Origin: an uncultured Candidatus Rokubacteria bacterium | GTDB taxonomy: Bacteria; Methylomirabilota; Methylomirabilia; Rokubacteriales; DASRDR01 | Reading direction: 5' to 3' | Assembly (NCBI GenBank): GCA_963805625.1 | Contig: CAWDVE010000011.1 | Coordinates: 96,001 to 160,000 of the forward strand | Length of the DNA: 64,000 nt | In this document: piece by piece, positions 34,227 to 64,000 of the stretch | Layout: the number at the start of each line of letters is the position of its first letter | How positions within the stretch are numbered: the first letter of the stretch is position 1 | Position numbers and translations under genes: made by a program | Notes under the pieces: model-generated | Databases searched by the model: none | Seen by the model: only the letters and a program-made list of their open reading frames with translations | What the model was told of the DNA's origin: nothing

Positions 34227-34242
34227 TGGCACACCGCTTGCG
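34227..34242 (+). promoter_or_regulatory. sigma54 (-24/-12) promoter
   Basis: TGGCAC-ACCGC-TTGCG fits the consensus TGGCAC-N5-TTGC. Confidence 0.7.
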
Positions 34243-49541: not shown

Positions 49542-50132
49542 TTACCTGCTGCGCTTCTTCCGAGCGGCCTTGCGTCCCGCCGGCCGGACCTGGCGCGTCC
49601 GGGCCGCCTTGTCCCTGGCCTTGAGCAGGCCGCGGATGTATGACGCCTCGCCGGCATGCTGGTGGCAGTCGGCCACGATGCTGACGATGCGCACGCCAAC
49701 TGTTGGTGGGTCCGGCCCCGGCTCGAGCTCGCGTTCGAGGTCGGCCGGGCGGAGGGCGGCGAGGTACTGCTTCGTCCGATCCGTGACCGCGTGCAGGTAG
49801 TCGAGCTGGACCTTCGCGCTCGGCGACCGGAACGCCTTCACCTGCTCGGGCGTGTGCCCGTACCCGGAATCGTCGTGGTCCGGCGGCCGGTCGAACTTCG
49901 CGTGCCAGCCGTCGCGGGTCCAGAGACCCGGCTCGCCCATGAGATCGGCGATCTGGGCATCCTGCACGCGCGTGAGATGCCACACGGTCCAGCCGAGGGG
50001 GTTGCAGCCGGAACGGGGCTGCCAGTCGAGGTCGGCGGTGCGAACGCCCGCCAGCACCTCCTCCATCAGCTCCGGCAGCCGATCGTAGCCGTCGACGATG
50101 AGCTCGCGCCATTCCATGGCGTCCTCCCGCAT
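49542..50132 (-). CDS. DinB family (DUF664-like) protein
   Basis: NPLGWTVWHLTRVQD, DSGYGH, DCHQHAGEASY. Confidence 0.85.
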   Translation of the reverse strand: MREDAMEWRELIVDGYDRLPELMEEVLAGVRTADLDWQPRSGCNPLGWTVWHLTRVQDAQIADLMGEPGLWTRDGWHAKFDRPPDHDDSGYGHTPEQVKAFRSPSAKVQLDYLHAVTDRTKQYLAALRPADLERELEPGPDPPTVGVRIVSIVADCHQHAGEASYIRGLLKARDKAARTRQVRPAGRKAARKKRSR

Positions 50133-50167
50133 CGCGCCATCCACGATGTCCTGGCGCGATTGGCGCG

Positions 50168-50196
50168 AGTTTAGGAACGGCCTCCACCAGTGTCAA
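50168..50196 (-). promoter_or_regulatory. sigma70-type promoter of the DinB gene
   Basis: TTGACA-N17-TAAACT. Confidence 0.65.
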
Positions 50197-50249: not shown

Positions 50250-51698
50250 TTACTCCGCCGCGGCGCGCGCGGGGATCGGGGGAGCGCCGACACCGGCCGC
50301 AACGGTCGGGACTGCCGCCGGCGCCGCCAGGCCGAGGTCGCGGATCAGGCGCGCGAGATAGGTCCGCTGGAGCCCGAGGAGGCGCGCCGCCCGCGTGCGG
50401 TTCCCGCTGGTCCGGCGGAGGGTGGACGCGATGAGCCCGCGCTTGAACTCCTCGATGGCTGCGTGATACGTCCGCACCGCCTCCCGGGTCATCCCGTCCG
50501 TGAGCCCGACCTCCCGGATCTCGGCGGGCAAGTCCTGCGGCGCGACGTCGGGCCCGTCGGCGAGGACAGCGGCGCGCTCGATCACGTTCTCGAGCTCCCG
50601 GACGTTCCCCGGCCAGGCATACCGGCGGAGAGTCGACAGCGTCTCGGGCGTGATGCCGTGCAGCTCGCGCTTGAGCTCCCGCCGGTAGCGCCCGAGGAAG
50701 TGCCGGGCGAGCGCGGGAACGTCCCCTGCCCGCTCGCGAAGCGGCGGCAGGGTCACGCTCACGACGTCGAGCCGGTAGTAGAGGTCCAGGCGGAAGAGGC
50801 CGTCCCGGACCGCGGCCCGAAGGTCCCTGTTGGTGGCGGCGACGAAGCGGACGTCGGTCTGGATCGGCCGCGTCCCCCCGACGCGCTCGAAGGTCTGGTC
50901 CTGGAGCACGCGGAGGAGCTTGGCCTGGAGCGCAGGACGGATGTCGCCGATCTCGTCGAGGAACACCGTCCCGCCGTGGGCGACCTCGAGCTTCCCGCGC
51001 TTCTGCTGGTGGGCCCCCGTGAACGCGCCCTTCTCGTGGCCGAACAGCTCGGACTCGAGGAGCTCCTCGCTGAGGGCCACGCAGTTGACCACGACGAACG
51101 GCTGGTCCGCCCGGCGACTCCAGCGGTGGATCGCCCGAGCGATGACCTCCTTGCCCGTCCCGCTCTCGCCGAGGAGCAGCACCGTCGTCCCGCTCGGCGC
51201 CACCCTCCGGGCGACGTCCAGCACGGCCCGCATCTGGGAGCTGTCGCCGACGATGACGGCGTAGCGGTCTCCCACCTCGGAGGAGAGGAGCGCGTTCGCG
51301 TCGCGGAGCGCCTGACGCTCGAGCGCCTTGCCCAGCACGATCTCGAGGTGCCGGGGGTCGATCGGCTTGGAGACGAAGTCGTAGGCGCCCTTCTTCATCG
51401 CCTCCACGGCCCGCGCAATCGTCCCGTGCCCGGTGATGACGATCACGACGACATCCGGCTCCTCCCGCCGGATCGTCTCCAGCACGGCCATGCCGTCCAT
51501 GCCCGGCAGGACCAGGTCCAGCAAGACGATCGCGGGCGGCTCCTCGCGGCAGAGGCGGAGGGCCTCGGGGCCGCGGTCGGCCACCGATACCTGGAAGCCG
51601 AGGAAGCGGAGTCGGTCGCTCAGCGCCTCGCAGAAGTCCGGATCGTCGTCGACCAGGAGAACGCGCGCGGGAGGGGCCATGGCTCGATCCTCAGTCAC
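50250..51698 (-). CDS. sigma54-dependent response regulator (NtrC family)
   Basis: REC domain, GESGTGKE, GAFTGA, FLDEIG, WPGNVREL, Fis-type HTH. Confidence 0.96.
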   Translation of the reverse strand: MTEDRAMAPPARVLLVDDDPDFCEALSDRLRFLGFQVSVADRGPEALRLCREEPPAIVLLDLVLPGMDGMAVLETIRREEPDVVVIVITGHGTIARAVEAMKKGAYDFVSKPIDPRHLEIVLGKALERQALRDANALLSSEVGDRYAVIVGDSSQMRAVLDVARRVAPSGTTVLLLGESGTGKEVIARAIHRWSRRADQPFVVVNCVALSEELLESELFGHEKGAFTGAHQQKRGKLEVAHGGTVFLDEIGDIRPALQAKLLRVLQDQTFERVGGTRPIQTDVRFVAATNRDLRAAVRDGLFRLDLYYRLDVVSVTLPPLRERAGDVPALARHFLGRYRRELKRELHGITPETLSTLRRYAWPGNVRELENVIERAAVLADGPDVAPQDLPAEIREVGLTDGMTREAVRTYHAAIEEFKRGLIASTLRRTSGNRTRAARLLGLQRTYLARLIRDLGLAAPAAVPTVAAGVGAPPIPARAAAE

Positions 51699-52098
51699 GG
51701 CGGAACGCCTGCGCCGTGAGGCGCAGGAGCTCGCCGGGGTCGAAGGGCTTGAGCATGAAGTCGTCGGCGCCGCGGGCGCGGCACGCCTCGCGGAGGGGAC
51801 GGTTGGGGGACCCGGTCAGCACGATCACGCGGGCGGCGGGCGCCGCCTGCCGAATCTCCGGCAGGGCCTCGAAGCCGCCGAGCCGCGGCATCTTGAGGTC
51901 GAGAATGATGCAGCCGGGGCGCGCGTCGCGCGCGCAGGCGAGGGCCTCGATCCCATCGCGCGCGGTGAGGACACGGTACCCGGCGGCTGTTAGGCGGTCG
52001 GAGACCATCTGGAGCAGATCCGCCTCGTCGTCGACGACGAGGACGAGGCGGTCCTCCCCGGCCGCCGGCGGGAGCAAGGGAGTCGGCAGGACGGTCAT
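51691..52098 (-). CDS. single-domain response regulator
   Basis: LVVDDE, ILDLKMP, LTG, KPF. Confidence 0.92.
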   Translation of the reverse strand: MTVLPTPLLPPAAGEDRLVLVVDDEADLLQMVSDRLTAAGYRVLTARDGIEALACARDARPGCIILDLKMPRLGGFEALPEIRQAAPAARVIVLTGSPNRPLREACRARGADDFMLKPFDPGELLRLTAQAFRRD

Positions 52099-53339
52099 CC
52101 GGCCATCCCACCCGGGACGGGCAGCAGCAGGATGAAGGCCGCGCCGCCGTCCGGCGCGTCCTCCACCCAGATCCGGCCGCCGTGGAGCTCGACCAGATGG
52201 CGCGCAATGGTGAGGCCGAGACCGGTGCCGGGCGGCCGCTCCACTTCGACCCGACCGACCTGGTAGAACTTGTCGAACACGCGCTCGCGCTCGGCCGGCG
52301 GGATCCCGGGACCGCTGTCCTCGACCGCGAGGCGGACCAGTCCTCCGGCGGCGGGGCGGGCCGTGACCACCACCTGGCCCCCCGGCGGGCTGAATTTGAT
52401 GGCGTTCGTCAGGAGGTTCGTCAGGATCTGGTGCACCCGGTCCGGATCCGCCCAGACCGGCAAGCACGGCGCCAGGTCAGGGGCCACGCGGACTCGGCGC
52501 TCGTCCGCGAGGTGGCGAAGGCCATCGACGGCGTCGGCGACCAGATCAGCGACCGGGAGCGCTCGCGGGATGAGCTCGATCTTGCCCGCCTCGATCCGTG
52601 TGAGATCGAGGAGGTCCGACACCATGCGACCCAACCGGTCGGTGTTGTCCCGGACGCGACCGAGGTAGTGGCGGGGCTTGTCGGTGAGCGGCCCGGCCAC
52701 GCCGTCCAGGAGGTTGTCGACGTAGCCCTTGACTGCGGCCAGCGGGGTCCGGAGCTCGTGAGAGACGTTGCCGAGGAAGTCGGACTTGAGCTGGTCGACC
52801 TCACGGAGGCGGGCGTGTGAGGCCTCGAGCTGCCGGTACGTGGCCTCCAGCTCGGCCGTCCGCTCGTGCACCTTGGCCTCGAGCTGGGCGGCGGAGTCCT
52901 GGAGCCGGCGATAGAGGTGGGCGTTCTGGATCACCACCGCGACCTGGGCCGCGAAGACTGTCACGAGCCGGACGTCGTTTTCCGACAGTCCGCCCGGCTT
53001 GTTGGCGATCGAGATCTTTCCGACGAAGCGTCCCTCGTGGAAGAGGGGGATCTCCGTCAGGTTGTAGACGCCGAACGGCCGGAGGAAGGCGCGCTGCTCC
53101 TCGTTGAACTCCTCCGGCCGCTTGTTGACCATCGGGCCCCGGTGCCGGAAGTTCCAGGCGGGCCGGAGTGCGTCGGCGGGGTAGCGGACCTTCTTGAGCA
53201 GCTCGTCCGCCACGTTGTAGCCCGGCCACTGGCAGACGAACTCGCGGGTCTCCGGCTCGTAGAGCGAGATCACGCACTTCTCGCAGCCGACGAGCTCCGC
53301 CAGCTGGCGGGTGAGCCGACCGTAGGTCTCGCGGATGTC
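52095..53339 (-). pseudogene. GAF-HisKA-HATPase sensor kinase, 5'-truncated by the integrated element (first usable GTG 53273)
   Basis: SHELRTPL, NAIKFS, DSGPGI, GTGLGL; GAF-like frame continues upstream (DIRETYGRLTRQLAELVGCEKC) until about 53340 with no start codon or RBS. Confidence 0.8.
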
Positions 53340-54904
53340 ACCCCTCGGGACGGTTCCATGGGCACGGTGGGTGTCGACGGCTCGACCGACGGCCCGACCG
53401 TGGGCACCATCCCCGCAATGGTCAGCTCACCCGAGGGATGCACCACGATCTCGTCGATGGCCGCCGTGAGGATCGTCCGGCGGGCCGCGCCCTGCACGGC
53501 CGCCAGCCCGCCCGGCAGCGTCCGGAGCCATCGCCGCAGGAGCGCATCCTGCCCGACCGCCTGGGTGCGCGCCTGCGCCTGGGCGGCGACCACCCCATCC
53601 AGGCGGGCGAGGCGCTCGCGGAGCAGCGTCCGTTCCCCCTCCAGGGTCGCCAGCCGAGCGCGCAGCTCGGCCTCAGGCCGCGGGGCGCTGTCGTCCAGGA
53701 ACACGTCGAGAGCCTTCTGGATCTGTCGCTCGAGCCGAGTCAGGGCCGTGCGCAGCTGGACACGTCCTGACTCCGCCTCCACGTCGGCCACGGCCCGCGT
53801 CGTCTCACGCCGGGACAAGTGCGGCCAGAGGGCCGCCGGGTCCTGGAACGCCTTGCGCAGCGCCGCCCAGACGCGGGCCTCCAGCGGCGCGGCGGCGTGC
53901 TGCGGCAGGCCACACTTCCGGGGCAGGCCGAGCTTCATGTAGTCCACGGATGCGCACCGGTACGCCGTTGCACCCCGCCGGCCCGGGACGCCGTAGAGCC
54001 GTCGGCCGCACACGCCGCACCGAAGGAGCCCGCGCAAGAGGTACACCGCCCGTGCCGGGCGCCCGCCGCGCCGCTGGGTCAGACTGGCCTGAACGCGCGC
54101 CCACAGGGCGGTCGGCACAAGCGCGGGCACGGGGATCCCGATCCAGTCCCCTTCGGGCTTCCGCGTGATGAGCGCCGACCGGCGTCCCGTCACGCGCGTG
54201 TAGCGCCGCCGGTTGTACACCGCCATCCCCTGGTAGGCCGGGTTGATCAGGATGCGGTGCAGCGTGGTCGTGAGCCAGCGGCCCCCGTGCGGCGCGGCGA
54301 TGCCAAGGTCGTGGAGCCGCCGGATAGCGGCCCGGATCGACAGCCCCTCGTCGCCGACCCAGCGAAACACATCGGCGACGACGGCCGCGGGGCCGGGATC
54401 CGGCTCAAGCGTCCCCGCGGCGTAGCGATAGCCGTGGGGCCAGCGGCCCGTCACGAAGCGCCCGCTCCGCGCCTTGGCCAGCCGACCGGCGTGGGTGCGC
54501 TCCCGGATCTGGGCGCGCTCGAGCTGACTGACGCCGGCCATGACGGTCTGGATGAAGTCGCCCACCGGCGTCGGCTCGGACGGCAGCGCCAGGTACTCCA
54601 CCCGCACGCCGACTTCGGTGAAGGCGTGGACGACGTTCGCCCACACGCGGAGGTCCCGCGCGAGCCGGGAGGAGTCGAGCGTGAGAACGACGTCGCACTG
54701 GCCCGCGCGGGCGTCGGCGAGCAGGCGATCGAGGTCCGGCCGGCGCTCGACCGCGCCGGAGATGCCTTGGTCGGTATAGATCCCGGCGATGGTGTCCCCA
54801 CGCCGGACGACGGCTGACTCCAGCGCGTGGCGCTGCGCCGCAAGCCCGTACCGTTCCGCCTGGTCATCAGTCGACACGCGGCAGTAGAGAGCGACCCGCA
54901 TCAC
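53270..54904 (-). CDS. large serine recombinase (integrase)
   Basis: ALYCRVSTDDQ, SRLAR, ERAQIRERT..GR, PHGY, NPAYQG, LLRCGVCG...YRC zinc ribbon, coiled coil. Confidence 0.95.
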   Translation of the reverse strand: MMRVALYCRVSTDDQAERYGLAAQRHALESAVVRRGDTIAGIYTDQGISGAVERRPDLDRLLADARAGQCDVVLTLDSSRLARDLRVWANVVHAFTEVGVRVEYLALPSEPTPVGDFIQTVMAGVSQLERAQIRERTHAGRLAKARSGRFVTGRWPHGYRYAAGTLEPDPGPAAVVADVFRWVGDEGLSIRAAIRRLHDLGIAAPHGGRWLTTTLHRILINPAYQGMAVYNRRRYTRVTGRRSALITRKPEGDWIGIPVPALVPTALWARVQASLTQRRGGRPARAVYLLRGLLRCGVCGRRLYGVPGRRGATAYRCASVDYMKLGLPRKCGLPQHAAAPLEARVWAALRKAFQDPAALWPHLSRRETTRAVADVEAESGRVQLRTALTRLERQIQKALDVFLDDSAPRPEAELRARLATLEGERTLLRERLARLDGVVAAQAQARTQAVGQDALLRRWLRTLPGGLAAVQGAARRTILTAAIDEIVVHPSGELTIAGMVPTVGPSVEPSTPTVPMEPSRGVTSARPTVGSPASWRSSSAARSA

Positions 54905-55074
54905 GCCGCCTCCTCGGGCCCGTACTCGGGCGGCACGGCGGTCAGGAGCGCCTCGACCAGCGCCGCCCAGCGCGCGGCATCCGCCTCGACCGGCACCCAC
55001 GTCACCCCGGCCTCGGGGTCGGCCTGAGTGTCGTGAGGCGAGGACGACACGTCAAGGGGCACAGCCATCGCCAT
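54901..55074 (-). CDS. small hypothetical protein coupled to the integrase
   Basis: Its TGA overlaps the integrase start; ends GAGGAGG (EEAA), which also serves as an RBS. Confidence 0.55.
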   Translation of the reverse strand: MAMAVPLDVSSSPHDTQADPEAGVTWVPVEADAARWAALVEALLTAVPPEYGPEEAA

Positions 55075-55431
55075 CCGGTAACGCGACGCTGCCCGCCGGG
55101 CAAGTCCGTGAGGCGTCGGCGCCCTCCACGGCCTTGCGTACCGCCTGATCATCCCGATCTCCGCCGTGTTGGCCACCCGCGGCGGCATCGCCTACCCGTT
55201 GATCGTCGCCATCTACGACGTGGTGGTCTACACCGCCTACTAGACCGTCAACGGGATGGTCGCGGTGCACGACGGCGAGGATTCGCCGGGCACCGAGCGG
55301 GATGGACACCTCGGCTCTCCAGTGAGACGGCAAGGCCGCGAGGAGCAGCGCCTGGGGCCGGGTGAGCTCCCGGCCGTTCCCGCCCCTGGACCGGCGGCCG
55401 TGGCCGATGCGCGCGCGAGGCGTTGGGGGGA

Positions 55432-57920
55432 TCACGAGTCGTCCTCGCCCCGGACCCAGGGGGGCTCCTCCTCGGAGGGCTCCGAGGGTTCGGAGGATTC
55501 CTGACCACCCCAGCGATCGCGCGCGCGCGCGTGTGCGTGGGCAATGGGTGGCACACCCTCCGAATCCTCCGGACACTCCGAGAGGCGCCAGCGGATGCCA
55601 CCGGTGTCGCTCGCCGTGGGCGCTTTCTCAACCCTGAGCCGCCGGGAATCCTCGAGGCGGTAGACGCAGTCCTGGATCTTCCCCAGCAGGCGGCCGAGCC
55701 GAATCCGCTGCGCCTGCACGGTTCTCCCCTCCACGTCGAGTCCGACCTCCGGCGCGAGAGCGACGGGGACTAGCTCGGCCACCGGCTGTGGAGTGGTGCC
55801 ATGCTGTTCCCACCAGAGGGCCAGGAAGGTCCGAACCAGGGCCGTCTCGTTGTCGGCCCGCTCGTATAGGGCCGCCCGGTTCTCGAGGAACCCCGGAATG
55901 TCCGCCGACGCCAGGATGCCCGCGATCACGCGGGCCCAGGCCTCGAACATACCCAACGCGGGCACGCGCGGCGGCGCAGGCCGATCTGTGGCAAGCCATG
56001 CCTGGCAGAGCACAAGGAAGGCGCGCACGAGGGCTGGACGGGAGGCGTCGACCCACGCGAGAAGGTCCGGGTGGCGAAACGCATGTCGCTCCCAAGGGCG
56101 ATCGCGCCGGGCGTCCAGGCGGCACGACACGGTTCGCCGGGCAAGTTCAGGTGACAAGACCGGATTGTTGCCGGTCGCGATCCAAGCGCAGCGCACGGGC
56201 AGATGCACCATCTCTGACCGCCCGAGAACCCGGTCCGTCCAATATTCGGCGGTGATGGCAGCGCTGAGGGCGGCCGAATCGAGGCGGCGGCGGAGATTGT
56301 CGATCCAGGCGATTGCCGGACTGCCCATGAGAGTCGAGGTGATCCGCTTTCTCCATTCGTCCTCGTCCTGCCCTTCGCTCATGGTTCCGGGATCTCGCCC
56401 GGTGGCGACGCGGGCGAGGGCGGCGACCAAGAGGGAGGCACCTGTGCCCGGCGTCGGTTTCTCCACGAGGATCAGCGGAACAGGCCCCTTGATGAGCGGA
56501 CGGACGAACAACGTTATTGCGAATGCGACGACATGGGCTAGGTCGGCCGCGCCGACGAACGGAAATTCTCCCAGGAGCTCCTTGAGCACCAGTTCTCGGG
56601 CCGCTGTGACGTCAGCGGGTGTGGGCGCGGACGGCACCTGAGGCACCACGAACCCAGATGGCGGTGCGTAGATCACACGGCTCTCGGGGTCGTAGCCGGC
56701 CGTCGCGTGCAGCCGGCCGGACGGTGTAAACACCGGCGTTTCGGTGATTTGCTCGAGTACGGGCAGGGGAGCGTTTGGCCGGGCCAAGAGGTCGCGCACG
56801 ACGGGCATAGGTGGATAGACACGCTGAAGCTGATCACCTCGACGCTGTCGCCAGTCCGCGACTCGGGCTAGGTGGTGGCGGAGGCGGTCTGGGGTCAAGG
56901 GACGACCTACTGGGCCGCCATTGTCGTCTCGCTCGATCCGGGCGAGGTTTCCGGCCCAGCGGAAGAACTGTGGTGGTTTGTTCGCTGCCTCCAGCGCGGC
57001 CCAGGCCGCCGCCGCAAGGCGAGGCAAATCCTGGTCGTCCGTCTCGATCATCGGGACATCCAGCTCGACGCGGGGGAGTTGGCCTATATCGTCTCCAGTG
57101 GCGCCCGTGCCGTGGATGTAGTCGTCGGCCCCGACCTTTGGATCTGTCACGACGCCACTCTCAGGTGATTGGGCAGGACGACGATGCGGGGTCGCGCACC
57201 CCGAAGACGGAGCGCCGTTGCGAGCCGGCGCACGCCGCGTTCCACACAGATGTTGGTCTGCCAGTCGCCGTCCGGCAGGAGCTCGATGACGCGACCGCTC
57301 ACGGGAATGACGTCGAAGTCTGGTAGGAGCTCGCGGGAGCCTCGGACATGCCACCCCTCGATCCCCTCGAACCCGACAGCCGGCAGGCTCAGTTGCGCGA
57401 CGCTCAGGGCCTTCTTGACGCCTTCCACCAACCACACCGGCTCGTCTCCCTTGAGGACGCGGGCCAGGCTCGGGACACAGAAGTACAGCCTGGGCGGGAC
57501 GCCTTTGGGCCCGAGATACTTCGTTGTGTGGCCGGTCTCGGAGATCAGCGGTGGGAAGACCTTGACCCTGACATGGTCCGTGAACCCGCCTGTGGGGGAC
57601 CGGAACGGAAAGAGCAGGGCCGAACGTACGACCGGCACGTCGAACCCCAGGAGCTTCGGCAGCATCGTCGGTGGGACCGAGCGGATGAAGTGCGCTCGGA
57701 TAGTCTCGTCGGTCAACCCACTCTTCGCGAGGTCAGCCCGATGCTCGGGTGCCAGCGCGCCGTCACAGAGGCATGAGAGGAGGAGGGCCAGGGTGGGATT
57801 CCTGCTCTCCTCACTTGGCGTCACTCTGGAGGCCCTCCGGGCTCCGGAACGAGCCCTCCCCGCTTGGAGGGTTGGGTCCGACGGCTTCATGCGGTCCTGG
57901 CGGTCTGTAGTCACGCTCAT
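55432..57920 (-). CDS. primase (DUF3854/Toprim-like) fused to a helicase-like domain; frame break near 57170
   Basis: KYLGPKG..PRLYF, LVEGVKKAL, GIEGW, PDGD in the 57147 frame; KVGADDY, PTPGTGAS, IDNL, ATGNN, RR in the 55432 frame. Confidence 0.8.
55472..55581. repeat. 3+3 inverted 9-bp iteron-like repeats (candidate replication origin)
   Basis: TCGGAGGGC/TCCGAGGGT/TCGGAGGAT (55472-55498) and ACCCTCCGA/ATCCTCCGG/ACACTCCGA (55555-55581) around a (CG)n run. Confidence 0.7.
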
Positions 57921-58222
57921 CGGGGGGTGAGCGAGAAATTCTCGAGGCGGCCCCGGCGTCGTCGCCGCAGGCGGAGGACCCGTGCCACTTCGGGCAGGCG
58001 CTCGGGCGCAAAGAGGACGCGGGCCTCCGTCGAGCCGATCTGGTGGGGTCGCACCCCCGGCACGGCCAGGAGTGGGATGATCTTCCGAGCCCGGTCGGTG
58101 TAGGCCGCCAGCGTCGTGGCATCGTGCCACTCTACTCGTCCGTACTTCCCGGGCAGGATTGGCCAGTGCTCGACGTCGGGCGCAATCCGGAAGCCGTGTT
58201 CACGCGCCACCAAGCGGAGCAT
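57917..58222 (-). CDS. phage-like hypothetical protein (start uncertain)
   Basis: PILPGKYGRVEW...HQIGSTEARVLF; stop overlaps the primase ATG. Confidence 0.6.
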   Translation of the reverse strand: MLRLVAREHGFRIAPDVEHWPILPGKYGRVEWHDATTLAAYTDRARKIIPLLAVPGVRPHQIGSTEARVLFAPERLPEVARVLRLRRRRRGRLENFSLTPR

Positions 58223-58432
58223 CGTGAACGCGCGTCGATGCTCGCTCGTACGTCCGGCACGAGGGTGCTCGCGCTGGCGGGGTCGGAGGACAGCGACGGG
58301 CGCTGCCCGATGGACGGGGCGGGGCGCGCGCCGGACGTTGCGCGACAACGGCGACTGAGGTACTGTTCCGATCAGCACGTTCGATTTCCTCCAGCGCCTC
58401 CAGAGCTAGCGACTCTTGGAGGCGCGTCTGTT

Positions 58433-58651
58433 TTAGGGTGTGTCCTCGTTCTCGGGAGCTCGCACGACCGTGGCATGAGCCGTCCGCTCGGCATACAGGC
58501 GGTCGATGATCTCCCGCGTGAACAGACGTGCGCCCCGGGGTGTGACCACGCTCGGACGAAGCCGGCCAGCCCTCACCAGCGCTCGGACTCCCGCCGGTGT
58601 GAGGCCAAGGACACGGCCCACATCGGCGGTTTCGAGGAGATGCTGCACCAT
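58433..58651 (-). CDS. helix-turn-helix protein (excisionase / MerR-like)
   Basis: LLETADVGRVLGLTPAGVRAL...TPRGARLF. Confidence 0.8.
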   Translation of the reverse strand: MVQHLLETADVGRVLGLTPAGVRALVRAGRLRPSVVTPRGARLFTREIIDRLYAERTAHATVVRAPENEDTP

Positions 58652-58736
58652 TACTGACCCCCCTTTCCTGTGATGTTGTGTGCATCTTCGCGCACGCATC
58701 ACGGGTAATGGGTCAACCAGGGCTGGAGCGTTTCAG

Positions 58737-58763
58737 GGATCCCCGCGTCTAGCGCGGGGATCC
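58737..58763. repeat. perfect 11-bp inverted repeat
   Basis: GGATCCCCGCG-TCTAG-CGCGGGGATCC upstream of the HTH gene. Confidence 0.8.
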
Positions 58764-58842
58764 GATGGGACGAACTTTCATTTGGTGACTAATGCGTCAA
58801 CTACCGGGAGCCGGGGCGAGCGTTCCTCCGAGAGGGTTATTT

Positions 58843-59604
58843 CTAGGGACGGGAGGTATTCCTCTCGCGTTTGGCCATCACGGTATGCGACCGCGTACAC
58901 CCCTTGGCGGGTGACGTTCGATATGTCGGTGATGTATCGAGGAAGAACTTGAGGCAGCCAGAGTGCTGGCATCGTCGAATACGACCGAGAGCATCGGGCC
59001 GAGTGGCGAAAAGAGCGACGACCGTGTCCATGAAGCGTTGCGTCCTGGGACGATGAGGGGAGTCTCGAGCCCATGACAAGAACCGCTCGGCATGTTCTCG
59101 CGCCTCACGTGCCTTGTGGACGATTGGGTTGACCGGGACGGACTCGATCTCATACTCCTCCGACCCGTCTGCATGTTCGTGTAACAGTGTCCATTTCACC
59201 CCGCGTGTCCCGGGCTCATGATGGGGGGGTGCCTCGGCCAATCCCGCGAGAACGCCAATAAGGGCACAGCCCCAGTCGTAGCCCTCCTCGAGACTTTCGC
59301 GACGAGAGTGCTCCCAGAGGCCAAGCCCGACCTGACAGAGTCGATCGAACTCCAACAACGAATCACGCGGTTCCGGTGTGTCTTGGCGAGACGGCCCGTC
59401 CCTCCACGGAACCGCAGTGTCGTTCTCATACATGTTTGTACGCATCGCATTGATGGCAGCCAAGGTCGCATCCCACAGGCGAAGCTCCTTGCGAGTGAAT
59501 GTGGGACGTCTGGGTCGACGCCTCTTGGCCTGTCTGGGAGCCTCATCATCGGTTCTCGCAATTCGGTCGAGCGTCTTGTCTTGTTGCCGCCGGACTTCGT
59601 TCAA
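58843..59604 (-). CDS. hypothetical protein with C-terminal CGNR-like zinc finger (start uncertain)
   Basis: RIRRCQHSGCLKFFLDTS...GCTRSH; lower GC. Confidence 0.55.
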   Translation of the reverse strand: MNEVRRQQDKTLDRIARTDDEAPRQAKRRRPRRPTFTRKELRLWDATLAAINAMRTNMYENDTAVPWRDGPSRQDTPEPRDSLLEFDRLCQVGLGLWEHSRRESLEEGYDWGCALIGVLAGLAEAPPHHEPGTRGVKWTLLHEHADGSEEYEIESVPVNPIVHKAREAREHAERFLSWARDSPHRPRTQRFMDTVVALFATRPDALGRIRRCQHSGCLKFFLDTSPTYRTSPAKGCTRSHTVMAKRERNTSRP

Positions 59605-59942
59605 CGACACCGCATCCGTCCCGGGCCGCCAGTTCGATGGGGTGCCGTCATTTTGCCCGCGGGCAAAATTCGGCTTCGGGACTCCGCGGCTTTCAAGTCC
59701 GTCCGCGCCTCCGCCTGCCCCAGGTACCGCCCACAGCCGAGGCAGACCGCCACCGGAAAGGGCTTCACCGGCTCCAGCGGGGTCGTCTCGTCCCGCGTCC
59801 AGACCGACTCGGCGATCCAACTCCAGGCGTCCCCCCGCCAGCGTTGGACCTTCCGACCCCACCGCGCCAGCGCCGCCTGCTCCGCCTGCCGCTCCGCCGG
59901 GGTCGGCGGCCGGGTCAGGGGCCGGATCCCGTGGACGCTCAT
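59601..59942 (-). pseudogene. possible N-terminal remnant of a terminase large subunit
   Basis: Follows terS; W.WIAESVWTRDE...VKPFP resembles TerL N-termini, but no ATPase motifs follow. Confidence 0.35.
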
Positions 59943-60035
59943 CCCAGGGTCCGCAGCGCCCGGGCCTTGCGTCACCACGCACGTCGTCGGATGGATCACC
60001 TCCCGCTGGGCCTCCGTCCGTAGCCATGCCTGAGA

Positions 60036-60731
60036 TCATGGGTCCGCCTCGGGCGTCGCTTCGATCACCGGCGGCGCGTCCTCGTCGAGCGTCGTCCCCT
60101 CGGGAAGATAGCCCTTGATGCGCTCGACGTCGCCCATCACGATCGCCGCGAAAAAGCCCTTCGGGAACAGGGGCCGCGCTGGCTCGTCGTTTCGGTCCTT
60201 CAGGAGGCCGAGGTACTTGGAGAGGTGCCCCAGCGCCGCGATCTTGTCGTGGAGCTTCACCCGAAGGTGCCGCTCCTCCGTCACCGTCCTGACCTCACCC
60301 GGCGGCTGGTAGCTCGGCTCGCCTGGCTCTCCGACCGCCGGCGTTATCCGTGTCGTGGTGCGCGTCGTGCGATGCTCGATCACGTCCGCCACGGCCGGTG
60401 CCACGTCATCGGGCAGTTCGGCGCTCGCCTTTAGCACGACCCCCTCGGGGCCCCACGTCGCCACGTCGCCCATGTCGGAGAAGGCGACGCGCCGCAGCTC
60501 CTCGAGCACGCGGTCGACGGTGAGATCGGCCTTCCGTAGATAGGCGGCGATCGCGTCCTGGATCCGGGGCTTACGGAGCAACTCCGACGCGCCCGAATAG
60601 GCGGCCTTGGGCGCATAGCCTGCCGCGATATACGCCCGGCTGGCATTCCCACGGATACCCGGCCGGCCCGCGAGGAAGTGCTGGACGAACGCCCGTTCCT
60701 TGACCGAGAGGCGAGTCCGGGTGCGCGCCAT
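60036..60731 (-). CDS. terminase small subunit
   Basis: LSVKERAFVQHFL, NASRAYIAAGY, ASELLRKPRIQ, VLEELRRVAFSD, VKLHDKIAAL..L.KYLGL. Confidence 0.92.
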   Translation of the reverse strand: MARTRTRLSVKERAFVQHFLAGRPGIRGNASRAYIAAGYAPKAAYSGASELLRKPRIQDAIAAYLRKADLTVDRVLEELRRVAFSDMGDVATWGPEGVVLKASAELPDDVAPAVADVIEHRTTRTTTRITPAVGEPGEPSYQPPGEVRTVTEERHLRVKLHDKIAALGHLSKYLGLLKDRNDEPARPLFPKGFFAAIVMGDVERIKGYLPEGTTLDEDAPPVIEATPEADP

Positions 60732-60890
60732 CGGCGCGAGAGTAGACCGACGCTCGAGAGGCTGCCATTTCTTTTTCGAGGCGGCGAGGGAACGAGGGGT
60801 CCTCAGTTCGGAAAGGAGCCGCCTTCCAGTGCCGGCCGGTTGGCCTGGCCCCGTCGGCAAATCTGCCCGGCGGGCAGATTTCGCCCCCCG

Positions 60891-61322
60891 TCACTGCGGT
60901 GCCCCCGGCGGCCGAGGCAGCGCGGTACCCTGGCAGCCTCGCAACTGGAGCAACGCCGGATCCCGCCGGACCGTGGCTTCGAAGAATCGCGGGGGAGGCC
61001 CGACGGCCTCGGTAGGTGCGATCAGCACGGCCCGGTGGACGTGGCGAGGGAGCGGGCTCGTTACCGGGGCGGAGACGCGACGCTTCCGGGCACCGGGACG
61101 AGGACGGCGGGCGGCGGCCTGGAGCTGGGCGCGCTTGGCGTCGGTCAGCCGGCGGCCCCCGCGGGCGCTCCGGCACCGGTGACAACTGAGTTGCGCGGTG
61201 GGGTGCGTGGGGCACGTCGGAGCGACCAGCACGCCGACTTGAGCGAGGACCCCGGCCTTGTCAGCGAGGCTCCTGGCCGCGTCAAGGCGGCGGAGGATGG
61301 CTTGCGCTTGCGTGGGCGTCAT
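60891..61322 (-). CDS. basic hypothetical protein with CxxH...CxxC motif
   Basis: CPTH...SCHRC...RGG...TDAK. Confidence 0.5.
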   Translation of the reverse strand: MTPTQAQAILRRLDAARSLADKAGVLAQVGVLVAPTCPTHPTAQLSCHRCRSARGGRRLTDAKRAQLQAAARRPRPGARKRRVSAPVTSPLPRHVHRAVLIAPTEAVGPPPRFFEATVRRDPALLQLRGCQGTALPRPPGAPQ

Positions 61323-61864
61323 GCAGGGCTGAGAGTAGGCGAGTCTGCGAGCTTCTGCCATTTCTTTCCGCCGCGCCCGCCACCGAGAAGCGACGCACCC
61401 CTGGCATCCTCGCTCAGCGGCGCTAGATGGCGGAGATGATCGCCGGTGGGGCCAGCTACGGCCAGGCCCCAGAGCTGGTGGTGCGAGAGTATCCAGCTCT
61501 GCCACAGCCGAGTAACTGGATTCTGCCCGCGCCGGCCGAATCGAGGTCCTACGAACGTCCGGTCCGCCGCCGATCTCACGCCGCGCCCGCCACTGGATCG
61601 AGGGGAAGAAGGGAGGGTCATTTGCGACAGCGAAGTCCTTCGTTGGTACGCCAATGGGTATTAGTCGGGCGGCTCATCGAGGCCTTCAGAGCGTGAGTAG
61701 CAAAACACAGGGCCAGCGAAGCCGGAAGAGGCGGCGGCAATCTCAAAAAAGCGAGACTCGTCACAGAGTTGGCGAGGGCCGTCGGTATGTCCGGCTCCAC
61801 CTACAACCGGGCCAATTGTCAGGTTTTCTAGGCAGGCTTACGCTCGCACTGGCGCCGACCTCTA

Positions 61865-63235
61865 ATGCTGATAGCCTCTGCCGGCTGGATCGCCCGAAGA
61901 AACCGGACCCTTCTTGCGCGGCTTTTCCGCCCAGGACTATATCTAACTGGTCTATTCGTTATTCTCTTCATGGCTGTCCAAGCGGTTTTGGCGATTAGCT
62001 CCTTGTACTATCTGGAGGCGACACTGATTGGTCGCTTTCACGTCGGACTTCTGATCGCGATTGCGGCGGGTGCCGTGTTGGGAATAGGTGGCGTGGCGAA
62101 GGCAGTGTTCTCTCTCGTTCACGAGGCAGAGCTGTCAGCTATCGGGGTTAGGTTGTCGAAGGATTCAATACCACGCCTCTGGGCGTTCGTGCGTCGTGTG
62201 GCCGATTCCGTCGGGACTGCGCCTCCCGAGAACATAGTCCTAGGCCTCGAACCAAACTTCTTCGTCACTTACGCGAAAGTGAGGACGCCTACAGCCGCGC
62301 TCAGTGGACGGACTCTCTTCATGTCGTTGCCACTAATGCGCATCCTGGCCGAAAAGGAAATTGCCGCGATCCTTGGACACGAACTTGGTCACTACCGTGG
62401 AGCCGATACGGATTACAGTCTGCGGTTCTATCCGATATACCGGGGGACGTCGAATGCCCTTCATGCATTGAACGCAACGGGAGGCGCTGCCCTCGCTCAG
62501 TTGCCCGCAGTGGCAACCCTCTCCTACTTTCTCGATGCGTTTGCCGAGGCCGAGAAAGGGATTTCACGAGAGCGAGAGCTTGTCGCGGATTCGGTAGGTG
62601 CCGAAGTAGGCGGCCCGGAGGCGATGGCAACGGCACTGGTGAAGGTTCACGCGTACGATGGTTGTTGGCCCTTCCTCCTGTCGAGGATGGTCGAAGGGCT
62701 TGCGCATGGGAAGGTATTGGCGAACGCGTGTGAAGGGTATTCCGCGTTGATTGCTCGCACTAACGATCAGGATGACGTATTTGCGCAGTTGGGTAACCAT
62801 CGGACGAGCCATCCGACAGACTCTCATCCGCCCCTGAGCCTACGCTTGGAAAGATGTGGTTACACCGTCGAAGGGTTGGCCCGGAGTGTCCGCCTGGCCC
62901 ACCCGCAAGGTGTGATCGATGGCCTGGAAGTTCCCTCGGAATGGGAGCGCGAGGCAACGAAGACCCAGTATGCACTCATCGAACGATTTCTAGAGAGTCC
63001 GAATGCTGTTCGCAATGCGGCGGTCTGCGAGTGGTCGGATCTCGAAAGCGAGCAGGCGATCGGTTCTAAGAAGAGCGCATCGATGCCTCATGTCTTCTCT
63101 CGTGGCAGCACCCCGCAAACACCTCCTTCGGTGCAGTGCTGGCGGTGCAAGCAACCGCTGCGGACGAGCGGCGCAAAGCCTGGCGCACACGTGAAATGTC
63201 AATCCTGCGGGACGAAGCAAGCATTGCCACTGTGA
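61865..63235 (+). CDS. M48 (HtpX-like) membrane metallopeptidase with C-terminal zinc ribbon
   Basis: Two TM segments, PNFFV, ILGHELGH, SRERELVAD, DSHPPL..RL, CWRC...CQSC; low GC. Confidence 0.9.
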   Translation: MLIASAGWIARRNRTLLARLFRPGLYLTGLFVILFMAVQAVLAISSLYYLEATLIGRFHVGLLIAIAAGAVLGIGGVAKAVFSLVHEAELSAIGVRLSKDSIPRLWAFVRRVADSVGTAPPENIVLGLEPNFFVTYAKVRTPTAALSGRTLFMSLPLMRILAEKEIAAILGHELGHYRGADTDYSLRFYPIYRGTSNALHALNATGGAALAQLPAVATLSYFLDAFAEAEKGISRERELVADSVGAEVGGPEAMATALVKVHAYDGCWPFLLSRMVEGLAHGKVLANACEGYSALIARTNDQDDVFAQLGNHRTSHPTDSHPPLSLRLERCGYTVEGLARSVRLAHPQGVIDGLEVPSEWEREATKTQYALIERFLESPNAVRNAAVCEWSDLESEQAIGSKKSASMPHVFSRGSTPQTPPSVQCWRCKQPLRTSGAKPGAHVKCQSCGTKQALPL

Positions 63236-63329
63236 CGGAACCCTCATGGGTCGGTTGCTTCGGGCGTGTGTCACGCTCACGACCGTCTACGATGCCGGGC
63301 GGCGGGGAAATAGGGTGCCACAGACTATC

Positions 63330-63386
63330 ATGCTCCAGCGCCTCGCCCAGGCCCTCGGCGTGCCGGTGATGCGACTGCTCGAATAG
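63330..63386 (+). pseudogene. C-terminal remnant of an XRE-family HTH
   Basis: MLQRLAQALGVPVMRLLE-stop. Confidence 0.45.
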
Positions 63387-63402
63387 AAAGGAGGCTATCG
63401 AG

Positions 63403-63654
63403 GTGAAGCGGGCGAGCGAGAAACCAGACGATCTACTGGTCGAGCAGCCTGGGCCTTACAGCCAAGCCGAACTTACCCGCCGACTGAAGGTCGCGATCGA
63501 GAACCTCGAAGCGGAGTTGGTGAAGCAGCAGACGAGCTCGAACACGCTGGCCGGGCGTCTTGAGATTCTGACGCGCCGTCTGCTCTGGTTCACGATCGCC
63601 CTCTTCGTGGTCGCGATTGTCCAGGTGGCCATCACCGCCTGGCCGGTGCGCTGA
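63403..63654 (+). CDS. small protein with C-terminal TM helix
   Basis: AAAGGAGG RBS; LTRRLLWFTIALFVVAIVQVAI. Confidence 0.7.
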   Translation: MKRASEKPDDLLVEQPGPYSQAELTRRLKVAIENLEAELVKQQTSSNTLAGRLEILTRRLLWFTIALFVVAIVQVAITAWPVR

Positions 63655-63704
63655 CGCGCGAGGCCATCCAGTTAAGGCTCCAACGCGCGAAGGAGGTCAG
63701 TCTG

Positions 63705-63932
63705 ATGCTGCTGCTTGCCTATGTGCTGGCGCTCGCGGCAGGAGTAGAGCCATTGTGGCTTCCCATCCTCCGTATCTTGGCATTGGCCGAGGGAGCCGTG
63801 CTCGCCTTAGAAACGGCATCTCGAGGGCTGAGTCTGATCGTTTCACTGATACCCCAATCCGTTCCTTCACCACCGTCGCCGCCTCACTGCGTGACCTGCT
63901 GTCCGGAGCGATCCAGCGATGCGAATGTGTAG
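63705..63932 (+). CDS. small hydrophobic hypothetical protein
   Basis: AAGGAGG RBS 8 nt upstream; hydrophobic N-terminus. Confidence 0.4.
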   Translation: MLLLAYVLALAAGVEPLWLPILRILALAEGAVLALETASRGLSLIVSLIPQSVPSPPSPPHCVTCCPERSSDANV

Positions 63933-64000
63933 CGCGCGATCTCATGGTGTCTGGGCTGTTTCCTCGCCATCCTCACCCTTCCTATCGTCGCGGTCGCCGA

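Follow-up and report, generated by a model that had tools for sequence, protein, structure and literature searches.

The window analysed here comprises 64,000 nucleotides of an uncultured Candidatus Rokubacteria bacterium (assembly GCA_963805625.1, contig CAWDVE010000011.1, positions 96,001 to 160,000 of the forward strand) and is part of the contig named C11 in the host genome G000 (7.27 Mb, 28 contigs). The subject is a sensor kinase gene, belonging to a sigma54 two-component operon, which is interrupted by an element with a large serine recombinase (LSR). Pfam domain search and the open reading frames (ORFs) of the window gave the minus-strand order LSR, cut kinase frame, receiver and sigma54 activator, in agreement with what a first-pass annotation had described from the letters of the DNA. 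The features at the junction are the following:

50250..51680, minus strand: NtrC/AtoC-type sigma54 activator, intact (receiver, AAA+ with GAFTGA, Fis HTH)
51691..52098, minus strand: single-domain response regulator, intact (PF00072; full-length match in 14 of 14 relative loci)
52095..53339, minus strand: sensor kinase 3' part, GAF-HisKA-HATPase_c (414 codons, zero internal stops; start and about 35 codons missing)
53300..53372, minus strand: right attachment junction, element arm followed by kinase arm (identity to the empty site starts at 53339)
53270..54901, minus strand: LSR of 543 amino acids (PF00239, PF07508 and PF13408: Resolvase, Recombinase and zinc ribbon)
54901..55074, minus strand: small ORF of 57 amino acids whose stop overlaps the LSR start, a candidate directionality factor by its position

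The receiver and the activator are complete in their domains, as had been noted. The kinase frame contains no start codon from the upstream stop (about 53426) down to GTG 53273, which lies inside the GAF domain. The kinase piece is 96% identical in amino acids to the unbroken copy of genome G013, and its dN/dS of 0.08-0.16 (against six relatives) indicates purifying selection similar to that of unbroken copies (0.08-0.17), a value which cannot tell a recent insertion from a maintained function.

The cut site and the recombinase

Similarity of the window to unbroken relatives ends exactly at 53339 in 14 of 14 loci, and this fixes the passage from GAF-like kinase to element sequence that had been placed at about 53340. 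The gene of these relatives extends upstream by only about 30-40 codons more. The missing 5' piece was identified in the same genome as the last bases of contig C4, which stops one base into the shared codon. The 35 codons of C4 and the 414 of the window hold no stop and abut without gain or loss when compared with unbroken genes, so that the in-frame rejoining proposed by the first-pass annotation holds. The piece precedes the GAF domain; it exists as expected, but it is not the half gene that had been supposed, and it was found at the end of C4 whereas the far end of the element, where it had been looked for, was not found. The gene order of relatives agrees: in G014, G003, G009 and G001 one contig carries the operon between the gene that here lies 2.2 kb inside the end of C4 and the gene at 37.5-39.1 kb of the window.

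The empty site holds the short inverted repeat CGGA-CA-TCCG, and because this repeat is centred there the crossover dinucleotide is tentatively placed at 53337-53336. Both attR and attB were mapped, the host arm reaching the C4 contig end. Excision would restore the reading frame exactly, assuming a normal attL. Neither attL nor the far end of the element was identified in the genome's own assembly by contig ends or fuzzy inverted-arm patterns; C11 terminates in a multi-copy repeat. Viral contigs yielded neither attP nor attL, five plus one pattern matches being without LSR or kinase match, or unrelated. The sole LSR recovered from the viral-contig scans (L037, 36%) is found in a different context. 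The search for attB and attP that had been suggested was therefore successful only for the former: the empty site is bridged by contigs of runs X2 and X3, from other samples, that of X2 with 6 differences from the window in 565 bases. Run X1, which may be the source sample, contains exact pieces of both host and element. No public sequencing run matched half of the junction words, and the filled junction was not spanned by reads or contigs from the runs examined, which proves nothing at that depth.

The LSR has the catalytic Ser10 and four zinc cysteines that are invariant in 13 aligned sequences. Its final codons (about 20) and its stop lie in kinase DNA in another frame, and the position of the stop differs between the window and the contig L019 described below. 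Integrated and free forms of the protein are likely to differ in a short tail, and nothing suggests selection for it. The closest outside homologues are 60-71% identical, with a close one in L021; by sequence comparison the LSR clade is new, as is the target gene, in an uncultured lineage. A similar small ORF is located directly before the LSR in five of six loci inspected (the window and four of five others), and a homologue is also present in a tyrosine-integrase element of genome G019. The former fits a directionality factor and the latter does not; the 57-amino-acid ORF is considered a candidate recombination directionality factor. In genome G167 (L023:1500-3200) an LSR of 42% identity, likewise preceded by the small ORF, splits a gene that we take to be comM/magnesium-chelatase-like, a label given from sequence features and not from a family search.

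Filled and empty alleles and a second integrase

The same insertion base was identified in a second species. The independent metagenome contig L019 comprises a 68%-identical LSR followed by an orthologous kinase, only 78% identical in DNA to that of the window and cut at the same base, with the element arm at the junction partly conserved. Related LSRs at one site of one gene, as expected of site-specific recombinases, were thus found in two elements, the window's and that of L019. The host side of L019 is 99.95% identical over 2137 bp to the congeneric genome G007, whose gene is unbroken, and therefore filled and empty alleles occur within one species. On its LSR side, L019 is identical to a contig of the G128 bin, whose gene set is prophage-like and differs from that of the window's element.

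The survey comprised 21 genomes of the family, 19 of which hold the kinase gene. The insertion site of the window (site 1) is continuous in 17 of these 19; of the other two, G000 has it split and G008 has a contig that stops 4 bases beyond it, its kinase 3' part not being found. The gene is unbroken in 16 of the 19, the exceptions being G000, G008 and G019, so that relatives with the empty site, which had been sought for comparison, do exist. Frameshifted copies in G014, G004 and one of G001 were counted as unbroken; those of G014 and G004 are likely sequencing errors, because the activator is frameshifted there too. In G001 the ferredoxin-kinase-receiver-activator block is in tandem duplicate (L045:3400-11500) with one kinase copy frameshifted, by duplication or by assembly error. 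Two candidates were left out of the counts: G004:C23, a 76-bp match to the 5' arm near which none of the ORFs listed encodes an integrase, and G165, which contains a different kinase.

Site-specific insertion into the sensor kinase, recurring across species, is on these comparisons real and well supported, and it is probably reversible. Misassembly of the junction, named beforehand as a reason to abandon the idea, is unlikely given the same junction base in an independent contig with a diverged LSR.

The third exception, G019, belongs to another genus of the same family. Site 1 is intact there; instead, a tyrosine-integrase element cuts the gene just past the H-box, between codons 243 and 244. 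The two pieces were identified at L046:4355-6260 and L047:5009-5617, and the 3' part begins exactly at the end of another contig. The four closest relatives of this integrase are located at tRNA-Lys (two), at a tRNA-Lys-like fragment (one) and at an intergenic site (one), so the case may be a single off-target event. The two neighbouring genes used as controls have their full length in 14 of 15 and 12 of 13 genomes; the exceptional copies lie at the edge of a contig in fragmented bins. The tally of tyrosine integrases in the host genome (three loci) is too thin for a background rate. The G019 element also carries a UvrD-like helicase, and a small ORF is common to it and the window (57917-58378).

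The element and the promoters around the operon

The inserted element has a gene content resembling that of a phage satellite. It comprises, apart from the LSR and the small ORF, the following:

53340..64000, no strand assigned: inserted element by congener comparison, extending past the window (far end not found in the assembly)
55432..57435, minus strand: primase/helicase-like replication protein (phrog_10537, E 1.5e-83; phrog_19930 'DNA polymerase/primase', E 6.8e-29; no Pfam match)
57147..57977, minus strand: DUF3854 primase-like protein (domain and phrog matches)
58433..58702, minus strand: HTH_17/excisionase-like DNA-binding protein (weak: PF12728, E 4e-5, below the curated cut-off; phrog_66, phrog_4691)
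60036..60860, minus strand: terminase small subunit (PF03592, E 1e-20; phrog_51)
61865..63235, plus strand: M48-family peptidase, low-GC cargo (PF01435)

The element DNA is without a match in four of five congeneric genomes, and in the fifth the match covers 107 bp. The GC of cargo DNA is 0.58-0.62 versus about 0.71 for the host. The gene set of phage-inducible chromosomal island (PICI)-like satellites is present: integrase, primase/replication module, excisionase-like HTH (weak matches) and small terminase. No lytic or capsid genes were identified among the 13 (Pfam) and 12 (phrog) ORFs scanned, nor beyond the window, which was covered by eye with three ORFs scanned. The remaining 19.5 kb of C11 comprise multi-copy signalling genes, insertion sequences and a terminal repeat; in the part past the window (L001:2500-8500) a multi-GAF histidine kinase and adenylate-cyclase/TPR genes, with many copies in the genus, are followed by an IS21-like pair. 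Elsewhere in G000 a 44% primase homologue is found close to a further LSR, where the kinase and cyclase cargo is similar (C10:1957229-1975300), and a 63% small-terminase homologue at C13:439284-439904. The prophage-like element of G128 with the L019-type LSR contains a Csf2 (type IV Cas7) match far below the cut-off (L028:15700-18700, E 1.8e-5) which adjoins a gene with a PAPS-reductase domain, a possible type IV-B CRISPR-like module.

The sigma54 boxes that the first-pass annotation had reported at 34.2 and 41.5-41.7 kb are present: 34227 is matched exactly, 41527 and 41577 with one mismatch each. As a set they are weak evidence, barely above chance: the window contains six box matches where the chance mean is 2.73, and 4 of 100 shuffles reach six. 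Against 57 strict sigma54 boxes and 21 GAFTGA activators in the genome as a whole, neither the box at 34.2 kb nor those at 41.5 kb can be assigned to this activator, and the proposal that excision turns on a sigma54 regulon is not supported so far. A better candidate target would be a conserved sigma54 box that lies upstream of the insertion site at a distance of about 800 bp, identified in 13 of 15 loci with enough flank (17 examined). It precedes a ferredoxin-like gene, labelled from its cysteine motifs and not by family search, which also has a sigma70-like promoter (by eye). The exact box at 34227-34241 (plus strand) is upstream of a dCTP-deaminase-looking ORF (by eye) with no link to the operon. 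A good sigma70-type promoter (10/12) at 50168-50196 (minus strand) precedes a DinB/mycothiol-transferase-like gene (49542-50144), and this gene need not depend on the activator.

Interpretation of the insertion

The explanation to which we lean, with some reserve, is that a phage-satellite-like mobile element has inserted at an attachment site in the kinase gene and that no regulation is run by the host. The LSR would use the conserved palindromic site near codon 36 of the kinase gene, with crossover at the central dinucleotide and without target duplication, as LSR biochemistry suggests. Integration would remove the kinase start, and the kinase would be inactive while the element is inserted; from the layout, the kinase body, receiver and activator would be separated from the kinase start and the upstream promoters. 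The element arm appears to offer no in-frame start codon, and the downstream genes may be transcribed by read-through from the co-oriented recombinase transcript. Reversal would need a directionality factor, the candidate being the small ORF coupled to the LSR, and excision, a side effect of the life cycle of the element itself, would rebuild the kinase exactly. The insertions are polymorphic within species and the elements resemble ordinary mobile satellites or prophages. Several observations weigh against this explanation. An unrelated second integrase family in the same gene (G019) is unexpected under a neutral-site model. Contigs end at the junction or at most 4 bases from it in three assemblies (G000, G008 and G019), a pattern compatible with a mixture of filled and empty molecules in one sample, and hence with excision that may be frequent. 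Nothing in the element replaces the sequence of the cut gene, and gene disruption of this kind often marks regulated gene integrity (PMC10111431).

The first-pass annotation had instead proposed a possible excision switch, like that of sigK, spsM and comK. In this reading (active lysogeny) the host or the element would respond to a cue by excision, with a rebuilt kinase and activation of the NtrC-type regulator. The in-frame fit of both kinase pieces, the intact LSR and the missing replacement sequence argue for it, as do the contig breaks, although co-occurring strains explain these as well as excision does and the G000 bin has 6.26% contamination and duplicated contigs. The kinase remnant and its partner genes are undecayed, but an insertion of recent date would look the same, given that the empty site occurs in near-identical populations. 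The host assembly, viral contigs and run contigs yielded no attL, attP or excision read, most genomes (16 of 19) do without any element, and the elements keep replication and packaging genes. The switch is for these reasons considered improbable. Similarly doubtful is its widest form, where the kinase gene would be a recombination-controlled master switch on which serine- and tyrosine-integrase elements converge, sub-populations would flip between split (off) and rebuilt (on) genes, and the activator would drive the sigma54 promoter before the ferredoxin gene. If true, regulated gene integrity would act on a two-component sensor in an abundant uncultured lineage of soil and sediment. If excision is regulated, gene-intervening switches, known from genes of sporulation and competence, would now include a sensor kinase.

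A conflict hotspot, where diverse elements converge since silencing of the pathway aids their persistence or spread, is less probable again. Two LSR elements at site 1 and the tyrosine-integrase element at site 2, past the H-box, would be expected from it, and the two control genes have no internal split away from contig edges in 15 and 13 genomes. An LSR relative also occupies the presumed comM-like gene of L023. The tyrosine-integrase case is nevertheless one event that may be off-target, and the controls comprise only two genes. Diverse elements interrupt comM (PMC11472951), whereas kinases are not enriched among LSR targets (PMC10083194). Convergence of several integrase families would point to a pathway whose silencing benefits mobile elements.

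Very little probability is given to a rewired kinase, a shortened form starting at GTG 53273 and expressed from the element. The overlap of GTG with the TGA of the LSR (53270-53273) would open a 392-amino-acid ORF with HisKA and HATPase, and prophage HK022 alters torS expression through cis elements (PMC6814406). That GTG, however, is an ordinary Val codon in 5 of the 14 unbroken relatives; it is GTC in L019, where the LSR stop is earlier and the overlap is thus not conserved, and the product would be without the first GAF helices. The wrong joining of element and kinase during assembly is the least credible explanation: the 5' piece is on another contig and no read or contig crosses this exact junction, but the junction base recurs in an independent contig whose LSR has diverged and whose element arm is conserved, and run X1 contains exact host and element pieces.

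Among LSR clusters 82.8-88.3% are predicted to be site-specific (Durrant et al., PMC10083194), diverged LSRs can share one site in a coding gene, and HisKA genes are listed among known targets with no enrichment (7/1069 vs 7/908). TIGER mapped 43.4% of islands in coding sequence (PMC12424338), and a screen for directionality factors is described in PMC12286644. LSR elements splitting coding genes, kinases included, are already catalogued and this case joins a known kind: it shares with those of PMC10083194 the Resolvase-Recombinase-zinc ribbon architecture and the reuse of one base in one conserved gene, and differs in the new LSR clade, the new target gene and the tyrosine integrase also found in that gene. 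A literature search, judged by titles and abstract openings, listed no case of a prophage whose excision repairs a histidine kinase gene. The new LSR with its mapped conserved target site is directly testable and has possible tool value, and a conserved signalling operon of an uncultured lineage would be on or off strain by strain via mobile elements.

The known gene-intervening elements comprise skin (sigK), SPbeta (spsM), the Listeria comK prophage and yin (yabG) (PMC10747680, PMC6814406). As in these, an LSR splits a regulatory gene near its 5' end, with a co-oriented recombinase, an in-frame fit and a small candidate directionality factor; those elements have timed excision and a phenotype, whereas here no excised circle was found and the target is a sensor kinase with no known developmental programme. 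HK022 at torS-torT of Escherichia coli also changes a two-component system by integration, but it sits between genes and alters promoter control (PMC6814406) whereas here the coding sequence is cut. At comM, where convergence is driven by conflict, unrelated elements likewise interrupt one conserved gene; a benefit to the element is arguable there and the second family is a single case here (PMC11472951).

PICI-like satellites have no lytic or capsid genes, measure about 15 kb and depend on a helper phage for induction and packaging. The element of the window resembles them in its integrase, primase/helicase, excisionase-like HTH and small terminase, no capsid gene being found. It differs in that its integrase is of the serine and not the tyrosine type, and is located downstream of the replication genes and co-oriented with them.

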